The notes: generated from the letters alone by a model not told the origin. DNA of 64,000 bases from Escherichia coli (GCF_050920415.1 NZ_CP169309.1); one strand, 5' to 3'. Shown: positions 45,136 through 45,240, numbered from the stretch's first letter. Made by a program: numbers and translations.

Positions 45136-45153
45136 AGATTTACCTCCAACAAA

Positions 45154-45178
45154 GCAAAAACCCGGCGCGGGGCCGGGT
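45154..45178 (-). terminator. rho-independent terminator immediately upstream of holin
   Basis: cccggc-gcgg-ggccggg hairpin followed on minus strand by TTTTTGC. Confidence 0.6.
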
Positions 45179-45240
45179 AATTACAATTTCGCATTGTTAG
45201 GAAATATTTTAATCTATTTGTTTTTTATGCGCGATTATGG

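Follow-up and report, generated by a model that had tools for sequence, protein, structure and literature searches.

A predicted late promoter and pause element beside the holin-proximal terminator of an mEp021-like Escherichia coli prophage

We analysed a stretch of 64,000 nucleotides (nt) of Escherichia coli DNA (GCF_050920415.1 NZ_CP169309.1), which we call the window, and focus here on a 105-nt intergenic gap on its minus strand (45136-45240). The gap lies between the stop codon of an open reading frame (ORF) of 58 amino acids (45241-45417) and the ATG of a prophage holin gene. It carries an intrinsic terminator hairpin and, upstream of the hairpin, sequences that resemble a promoter followed by a pause element. 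In lambdoid phages the gene of the antiterminator Q is immediately followed by the late promoter pR', a sigma-dependent pause element and the terminator tR' (PMC9388147). With moderate confidence we read the gap as a pR'-pause-tR' cassette that has been moved from Q to the holin, with the hairpin as its tR'-type terminator.

The terminator in front of the holin gene

The region is 85-92% identical to the Escherichia phages MagusPhagus, mEp010, mEp013, mEp021, mEp515, mEp044 and mEp554, and 99.8% identical to a prophage of E. coli O157:H7 LSU61. These sequence identities make the window a prophage of the mEpimmI group (mEp021-like). The mEpimmI phages are a Nus-dependent, non-lambdoid group (PMC11893012) and have been reported to be as common as lambdoid phages in human gut samples. 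Downstream of the gap and on the same strand lie the holin (66 amino acids, HP1 family, 44935-45135; PF16080, E = 7e-15; 94% identical to mEp021 gp46), the endolysin, a lysozyme of 163 amino acids (44442-44933; PF00959, E = 4.6e-44), and an Rz-type spanin of 156 amino acids (43984-44454; PF03245, E = 9e-25). A candidate Rz1 ORF with a lipobox-like LSGC is embedded in Rz (44052-44264, minus strand). The lysis genes are followed on the same strand by the small and large terminase and the head genes.

A pattern scan finds the hairpin at 45178-45160 of the minus strand as ACCCGGC-CCCGC-GCCGGGT, a 7-bp stem with 6 G-C pairs around a 5-nt loop, which folds alone at -13.3 kcal/mol. The run TTTTTGCTTTG stands directly 3' of the stem, which then reads into UUUUUGCUUUG; T45160 is both the last base of the stem and the first of five consecutive Ts. 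The U-run TTTTGCTTTG (45150-45159) has one C/T column among the relatives described below and is otherwise invariant. It is followed by TT, the holin Shine-Dalgarno sequence GGAGG (45143-45147; GGAGG or GGGGG in all relatives), 7 nt and the holin ATG at 45135. The opposite strand has no T-run 3' of the stem.

A loose pattern scan of the region was near background, with 12 sites for 9.6 expected, and was uninformative; we therefore made a stricter scan, in which the 7 bp of the stem had to pair perfectly, 6 or more of them as G-C, around a loop of 3-8 nt, with TTTT immediately 3'. Both strands of the window together contain two such sites, and 30 first-order Markov simulations contain none. One site is the holin hairpin and the other, at 35170 on the minus strand, stands just downstream of a 351-amino-acid ORF (35190-36245) that is a putative capsid gene by its position. 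The GC-rich hairpin and T-run that the first-pass annotation had placed at 45154-45178 of the minus strand are thus verified by sequence, fold and strict scan. The distance of about 10 nt to the Shine-Dalgarno sequence that it had given is also right: the TTTTT run ends 8 nt before GGAGG, while the end of the hairpin is 12 nt from GGAGG and 24-25 nt from the holin ATG. Those 24 nt leave no room for a promoter between hairpin and holin.

The hairpin has been annotated before. The GenBank record of mEp021 (MH706966) marks the same hairpin, directly before the holin gene gp46 and in lysis-region DNA 85-92% identical to ours, as 'terminator TERM_5; score=100', and four more mEp phages have it labelled 'terminator'; as a terminator it was thus already on record. 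The legend of Fig. 7 in the genome paper lists t1, t2 and t5 as experimentally demonstrated terminators (PMC11893012), and from order and numbering we infer that t5, TERM_5 and the hairpin in the window are the same element. Used as a search key, the hairpin sequence matches many unrelated phages, which marks it as a generic terminator sequence. With a G-C-rich stem-loop and an immediate U-run on the transcribed strand, and with the late genes next, the hairpin is a genuine terminator, one which transcription of the late and lysis genes has to pass.

Promoter-like and pause-like sequences in the gap

Read along the minus strand, the gap consists of TCGCGC, 17 nt, TAAAAT, ATTTCCT, AACAAT, GCGAAATTGTAATT and the hairpin. 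TAAAAT (45206-45211), the predicted -10 hexamer, matches TATAAT at 5/6 positions, and TCGCGC (45229-45234) occupies the -35 position 17 nt upstream of it with 2/6 matches. AACAAT (45193-45198) is again -10-like; it begins 7 nt after TAAAAT and ends 14 nt before the hairpin. We predict that AACAAT is a sigma70-dependent pause element and that its first A, A45198, is the transcription start; the placing of a -10-like hexamer in the first transcribed bases resembles a pause element at the level of sequence only. Counted from A45198, the hairpin would extend from +21 to +39, downstream of the pause element, and termination would fall near +43. A motif search finds this promoter-pause signature nowhere else in the window. 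A scan of genome contigs with TTAAAATNNNNNNTAACAATGNGAAA gave 26 matches, all of them random AT-rich sites in unrelated bacteria.

The conservation of the gap was assessed in 35 distinct mEpimmI sequences that had been collected through the endolysin, so that the gap itself played no part in their selection. TAAAAT, AACAAT and an AAACAA within the promoter spacer (45218-45223) are invariant in 35/35. Column counts were made on the 33 sequences with the holin type of the window, for gap columns from 45223 down. In this block 68/88 columns (77%) are invariant, compared with 32/66 (48%) of the holin third-codon positions, 116/132 of the first and second positions and 8/77 (10%) of the columns in the upstream flank. 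Invariance follows the proposed elements: 6/6 positions of the -10, 6/6 of AACAAT and 12/12 of the stem arms, with only 1/5 in the loop. The invariant blocks are AAACAA, GATTAAAATA (45214-45205), CCTAACAATGCGAAA (45200-45187), both stem arms and the T-run. Variation falls in the -35 zone, at three positions of the discriminator, immediately 5' of the stem and at all but one of the five positions of the loop. The loop is 4 to 6 nt long among the relatives, and the sole stem change seen is a closing A-U turned into G-U in two of them. At the -35 position most relatives have TTGTAG, TTGTGG or TTGTAT, and the alignment falls into two haplotypes; T45234 and G45232 are invariant within the hexamer.

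The gap also appears to move as a unit. Across 34 E. coli genomes, homology to the window often starts at 45223, inside the gap, and such homology breakpoints were the first hint that the gap is a separate module. Strain RM9245, in which both the upstream gene and the holin differ from those of the window, matches only from 45223 to 45141, and overall the block is found beside at least five different, unrelated upstream genes and two holin types. Judged from these junctions, the gap acts as a separate module.

We compared the gap with ten late promoters of the Q-lambda family, those of lambda, P22, phi80, ES18, HK225, PHB10, PhiR47_1, a Klebsiella phage, Erwinia phage 49 and a Citrobacter prophage. 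All ten share a layout of a -10, 4-7 nt, AAnnnT and a terminator that runs from about +27/+50 to about +51/+75. Lambda pR' reads TTGACT-17-TAAATT, then TGACTC and the -10-like AACGAT. P22 has the same -35, spacer and -10 as lambda and AACGAT at whose first A the start is annotated, together with a qut site and a tR' from +31 to +59. The phi80 promoter is TTGCAT-17-TAGATT followed by CATCTC and TAACGCT, and that of ES18 is TTTACA-17-TAATAT followed by CGTTTC, TAACAGT and then AGAAAT. The other six show the same pattern, with terminators ending at about +55 to +75; the pause-like element is TAACACT in Erwinia phage 49 and AATGAT in the Citrobacter prophage. As in lambda and P22, the gap has a -10 and, 6-7 nt beyond it, a -10-like AAC(G/A)AT at +1, with a terminator some tens of nt downstream. 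The window unit is the most compact of the set. Its predicted terminated RNA of about 43 nt is the shortest among those compared, and the unit is only some 12 nt shorter than that of P22, HK225 or PHB10.

A divergent relative, L238, present on contigs of about 53 kb, carries a Q (protein P0010) that is 50% identical to the window Q, and it has the same gene order as the window: NinG, RusA, Q, 11 small ORFs, a gap, an HP1-type holin, lysozyme, Rz and terminase. Its gap begins with AAGCGC, 17 nt, TATAAT, TCCCTC, AATAAT and GGCAAAGATG, and it ends with a hairpin AAGGCTGGA/TCCGGCCTT, TATTTTTTTG, 7 nt, GGGAGG, 7 nt and ATG. Both -10-type elements are nearer to consensus than in the window, their order and spacings are preserved, and an AAACAA stands at nearly the same spacer position. 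The hairpin is unrelated in sequence to that of the window, and its segment folds at -22.8 kcal/mol (z = -5.1). The same architecture built from different sequence is, in our view, the best single argument for a cassette. A second and closer relative, L241, whose Q is 76% identical, reads TCGCGC, 17 nt, TAAAAT, ATCCTC and AACAAT in a gap of only 69 nt, where the -35 position falls within coding sequence.

For this gap MH706966 annotates only the terminator and a ribosome-binding site, with no late promoter, pause element or Q site. The genome paper likewise gives none of the three for the gap and uses the word 'promoter' solely for Ptac (PMC11893012). Relative to these two sources the predicted late promoter and pause element are new, and the terminator is not.

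The Q gene and competing accounts of late transcription

The antiterminator that would act at such a cassette is encoded 5.8 kb upstream on the same strand, as a Q gene of 240 amino acids (51048-51770). The protein matches PF03589, the Q-lambda family (PMC9388147), at 102 bits (cut-off 26.7), aligns end to end with lambda Q at 34% identity over 238 residues (E = 8e-46), and matches PDB entries 7UBM, 4MO1 and 7UBJ, all of them Q-lambda. Its N-terminal segment, which in lambda Q forms the nozzle at the RNA exit channel (PMC9388147), is especially conserved. It is 95% identical to mEp021 gp37, which lies about 2 kb upstream of the terminator in MH706966 and is named there 'putative late gene regulator Q'. 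Phage databases contain relatives of it in two sets, mEpimmI proteins at 81-100% identity and those of lambda, P22, ES18, phi80 and others below 37%. By these alignments the window Q is a full-length lambda Q homologue. Residues ~113-143 form a 31-residue insertion relative to lambda Q that adds two CxxC pairs, giving four CxxC motifs in all, and there is a weak DnaJ-type zinc-finger match (PF00684) below cut-off; this suggests a two-zinc 'arm' in place of the single zinc ribbon of lambda Q.

Between Q and the cassette lie 24 tightly packed small ORFs on the minus strand (45241-51047). This array is hypervariable and mosaic in gene content, and none of its ORFs that we tested has a Pfam match; one member is annotated 'RNA-binding protein' in LSU61 (array relatives L154-L198). 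The distance from Q to the cassette is 5,835 nt in the window and ranges from 1.9 kb (mEp021) to 6.7 kb across 45 relatives. The Q stop codon overlaps the next ORF, so that there is no promoter gap directly after Q. Only two gaps longer than 50 nt exist between Q and the holin, the holin gap and 47734-47841, and the latter was rejected as a late promoter site since it has no promoter-pause signature. A terminator-like hairpin at 49454-49435 of the minus strand, AAGCGGGATAAAACCCGCTT followed by TTTTGTTCGT, was rejected as the terminator of a late promoter; it sits within codons 7-13 of a 77-amino-acid ORF (49239-49472). As far as the sequence can tell, no place between Q and the holin is better suited to a promoter than the gap.

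The likeness to lambda and P22 extends beyond the promoter: the window Q is a member of their Q family (PF03589) and can be aligned with lambda Q over its whole length, and one strand carries the holin, endolysin and Rz genes followed by those for packaging and the head. The differences are that the proposed cassette of the window is 5.8 kb from Q with 24 accessory ORFs between, that its -35 is weak and that no Q-binding element of the lambda type can be recognised in it. From terminator to holin ATG there are 25 nt in the window, compared with ~406 nt in lambda, 299 in P22, 296 in ES18 and 327 in phi80. The nearest parallel to this placement is in phi80 (NC_021190), which also has a Q-lambda-family Q and has a second putative terminator (42362-42385) 40 nt upstream of its holin; there, however, the holin-proximal terminator is an extra one, and phi80 has its own pR'-pause-tR' unit beside Q, about 400 nt further upstream. 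The cassette is ordinary in kind though tidy in its details, and its placement is unusual but conserved.

According to the reading that we favour, host sigma70 RNA polymerase would start at about 45198 from the promoter with the -10 TAAAAT, and sigma region 2 would then bind the -10-like AACAAT at +1 to +6 and hold the enzyme in a promoter-proximal pause. Without Q, the polymerase would escape and terminate at the hairpin and U-run (+21 to ~+44), releasing a short RNA of about 42-45 nt and leaving the lysis and morphogenesis genes silent. Once Q has accumulated, it would load on the paused complex and make the polymerase resistant to the terminator, and the modified enzyme would transcribe holin, endolysin, Rz, terminase and the structural genes. 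The same terminator would stop unmodified transcription arriving from the 24 accessory ORFs and so shield the lysis genes. The RNA that needs antitermination most likely begins near 45198, only 20 nt ahead of the hairpin and not far upstream, because the 60 nt just upstream of the hairpin carry a lambda-type late promoter and pause signature.

The first-pass annotation had proposed that lysis gene expression needs antiterminated read-through from upstream, in keeping with Q-type control and with a terminator unusually close to the holin. The closeness holds against the four phages measured above, and Q-type control agrees with a Q antiterminator encoded upstream on the same strand. Of the read-through itself, the terminator to be passed and the upstream Q stand; the distant promoter that the wording implies is not supported, and the local signature TAAAAT-7-AACAAT more likely takes its place. 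That signature and the 5.8-kb distance of the Q gene had been overlooked.

Several observations weigh against a local late promoter. The -35 is weak, with 2/6 matches in the window, L241 and L238 and 3/6 at best in the relatives, and the gap promoter has no extended -10. A promoter scan does not report the site, which falls below its threshold. About 4% of random 45-mers with the same AT-rich composition contain a -10 followed by AAnnnT, and this composite occurs 23 times in the window's 128 kb; found in one sequence, the motif proves little. No compensatory stem changes were seen within the group, because it is nearly uniform and its stem invariant. The cassette stands apart from the Q gene, where pR', pause and terminator would be expected directly after it, and to our knowledge all characterised Q cassettes adjoin their Q gene. 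Nothing in the gap resembles the Q-binding element of lambda or phi80. To locate such an element we asked whether Q alleles co-vary with the promoter's upstream half and found that they do not: Q classes of 240 and 242 amino acids each occur with both -35 haplotypes. It follows that Q, if it binds at the gap, would bind a shared part, and AAACAA (45218-45223) is a candidate for part of a Q-binding element. We also considered TTTACAAAATGGC as a Q-binding element for its likeness to the ES18 -35 and spacer, and rejected it: the copies of this sequence occur in the immunity region and near the t4 hairpin described below, not in the holin gap, and the would-be -10 of the t4 copy is a variable hairpin loop. 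The case for a promoter accordingly rests on the invariance of the elements, the modularity of the gap, the comparison with L238 and the resemblance to ten late promoters already known or annotated.

One explanation that does without a promoter in the gap is that the hairpin ends the early operon and that polymerase arrives from an early promoter about 15.8 kb upstream, modified by an N-like protein at nut sites (nutR1/nutR2) or by Q elsewhere. The parts for such a route are present. Gp17 of mEp021 is an N-like antiterminator (PMC11893012), and the window encodes a homologue on the minus strand (60302-60589; tblastn identity 94.8%, 96/96 residues), which would be the N-like early antiterminator. 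A t4 hairpin and nutR2-like region (53142-53306, minus strand), 91.5% identical to mEp021 20076-20240 and named after the Fig. 7 legend of the genome paper (PMC11893012), contains a boxA-like TGCTCTTTAAAAA and then a small A-rich stem-loop, an upstream N-like loading site. N-like protein and nut site thus stand upstream in the same transcription unit, and unbroken same-strand ORFs lead down to the hairpin. The Fig. 7 legend moreover places t5 within the Gp17 antitermination map (PMC11893012), and the weakness of the local -35 fits as well.

As with lambda N and mEp021 Gp17, a polymerase modified upstream would also need to pass the window terminator, and with Gp17 and the nutR2 region on the same strand an N-modified polymerase offers a second route through the hairpin. 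The elements beside the hairpin are nonetheless of Q type and not of N type, and the gap itself contains no nut-like boxA or boxB. As the sole explanation, a distant promoter would leave Q without a site of action, since no other gap downstream of Q has the promoter-pause-terminator signature. Nor would it account for the invariance of TAAAAT and AACAAT, for a spacing that they share with ten Q-lambda promoters or for their reconstruction in L238, and it would make lysis a delayed-early function. We consider it unlikely on these grounds, though the likeliest of the alternatives. N-type read-through from the early promoter is probably a second, minor route, by which polymerase modified by Gp17 at nutR2 would pass the terminator at a lower level. 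Lambda shows a comparable N-dependent leak through tR'.

A further possibility concerns the variants that lack a credible -35, namely the window, L241 and L238. These may have no working promoter, with tandem pause elements that catch polymerase from the early operon and Q loading there, a proposal to which we give about one chance in ten. If it were true, a Q protein would act without a promoter of its own, and the N-like and Q antiterminators would be integrated at one terminator, 8 nt from the ribosome-binding site of the holin, to set the timing of lysis. Stated for the gap in general, the proposal is that Q loads on elongating polymerase with no local initiation and carries it through the hairpin, and that TAAAAT and AACAAT are sigma70-dependent pause elements at which sigma rebinds from solution. 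The retention of both -10-like elements in the three variants speaks for it, as do the upstream ORFs that reach the gap and the L241 -35 position inside coding sequence. Most relatives, however, retain an invariant TTG at -35 with a 17-nt spacer, the two elements are spaced precisely like a promoter and its pause element, and we know of no characterised Q that loads without local initiation. In this general form the proposal seems slightly less probable still.

It is also conceivable that the stem-loop belongs to the 5' untranslated region, where it would mainly stabilise the lysis mRNA or tune holin translation, termination being incidental. The hairpin is 12 nt from the ribosome-binding site, and in read-through mRNA UUUGUUGGA (45153-45145) could pair with UUCGACAAA (45132-45124) and enclose the holin ribosome-binding site and AUG; a common A-to-G variant at 45125 retains the pairing as a wobble pair. 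This helix may be a translational brake on the holin. As an account of the hairpin, a role in the untranslated region is very unlikely: a conserved U-run straight after a G-C-rich stem is the signature of a terminator, L238 keeps hairpin and T-run with a different sequence, and TERM_5 is reported as a working terminator. Least probable of all, and in our estimate close to negligible, is that a holin promoter has its -10 in TGTAAT (45185-45180), which matches the -10 consensus at 5/6 positions and precedes the stem by 7-8 nt, and that the transcripts of this promoter start within the 5' arm of the hairpin, so that the terminator never forms in them and merely insulates against upstream transcription; many relatives have TGTAAC, TATAAC, TGTATC or TGTATT there, with the essential final T lost or the hexamer otherwise not conserved, there is no -35 and L238 has no equivalent, and we ruled the hexamer out.

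Other sequence features and meaning for the mEpimmI phages

Several further features were noted along the window. An Rfam search of 43000-54000 returned no family at E up to 1. The 17-mer AAAGTTTACAAAATGGC has six copies within 3 mismatches, compared with 0.39 expected in the window: 47815-47799, 53310-53294, 60982-60966 and 61825-61809 on the minus strand, and 53224-53240 and 28201-28217 on the plus strand. Copies lie directly against the -35 of TTGACT-17-TATATT (60965-60937), a strong promoter-like site, and others stand upstream of the repressor gene, as an inverted pair flanking the t4 hairpin and in the gap at 47.8 kb; they are probably operator or regulator sites. The core of the 17-mer resembles the -35 and spacer of the ES18 and Citrobacter late promoters (TTTACAAAGTGGCGAT). 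The t4 hairpin itself (53296-53261) has conserved arms, a highly variable loop and a poorly conserved T-run, which is TATTCACC in mEp021, and it may be something other than a simple terminator.

The gap at 47734-47841 contains, on the minus strand, a C13 run (47828-47816) and then a 14-bp hairpin (47808-47775) without a T-run; its fold has z = -4.0 and the module occurs in only some members of the group. Relatives carry TACCCCGC in place of the C13 run, which may be a homopolymer expansion or an assembly artefact. Among the structural genes, the gene at the portal position in the LSU61 prophage (L004, 14319-15692; window homologue 38854-40248) is named 'anti-CBASS protein Acb1 family protein' in RefSeq. 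Its equivalent in L238 matches Phage_portal_3 (PF06381), and the Acb1 name is probably an annotation quirk.

If the favoured reading is right, it predicts the site of the late switch in the mEpimmI phages down to individual bases, a site absent from the published annotation and from the genome paper. It would leave the understanding of Q antitermination itself unchanged, and would mean that the lambda Q cassette can be split from the Q gene and packed against the start of the holin. The resulting unit of about 90 nt would be a very small Q-responsive switch for engineering. A cassette beside the holin would place the hypervariable accessory array of 2-7 kb upstream of the late promoter. In Shiga toxin (Stx) phages the accessory genes lie downstream of pR' and are Q-dependent; the placement in the mEpimmI phages is the reverse, and the genes of their accessory array would be early and N-dependent.

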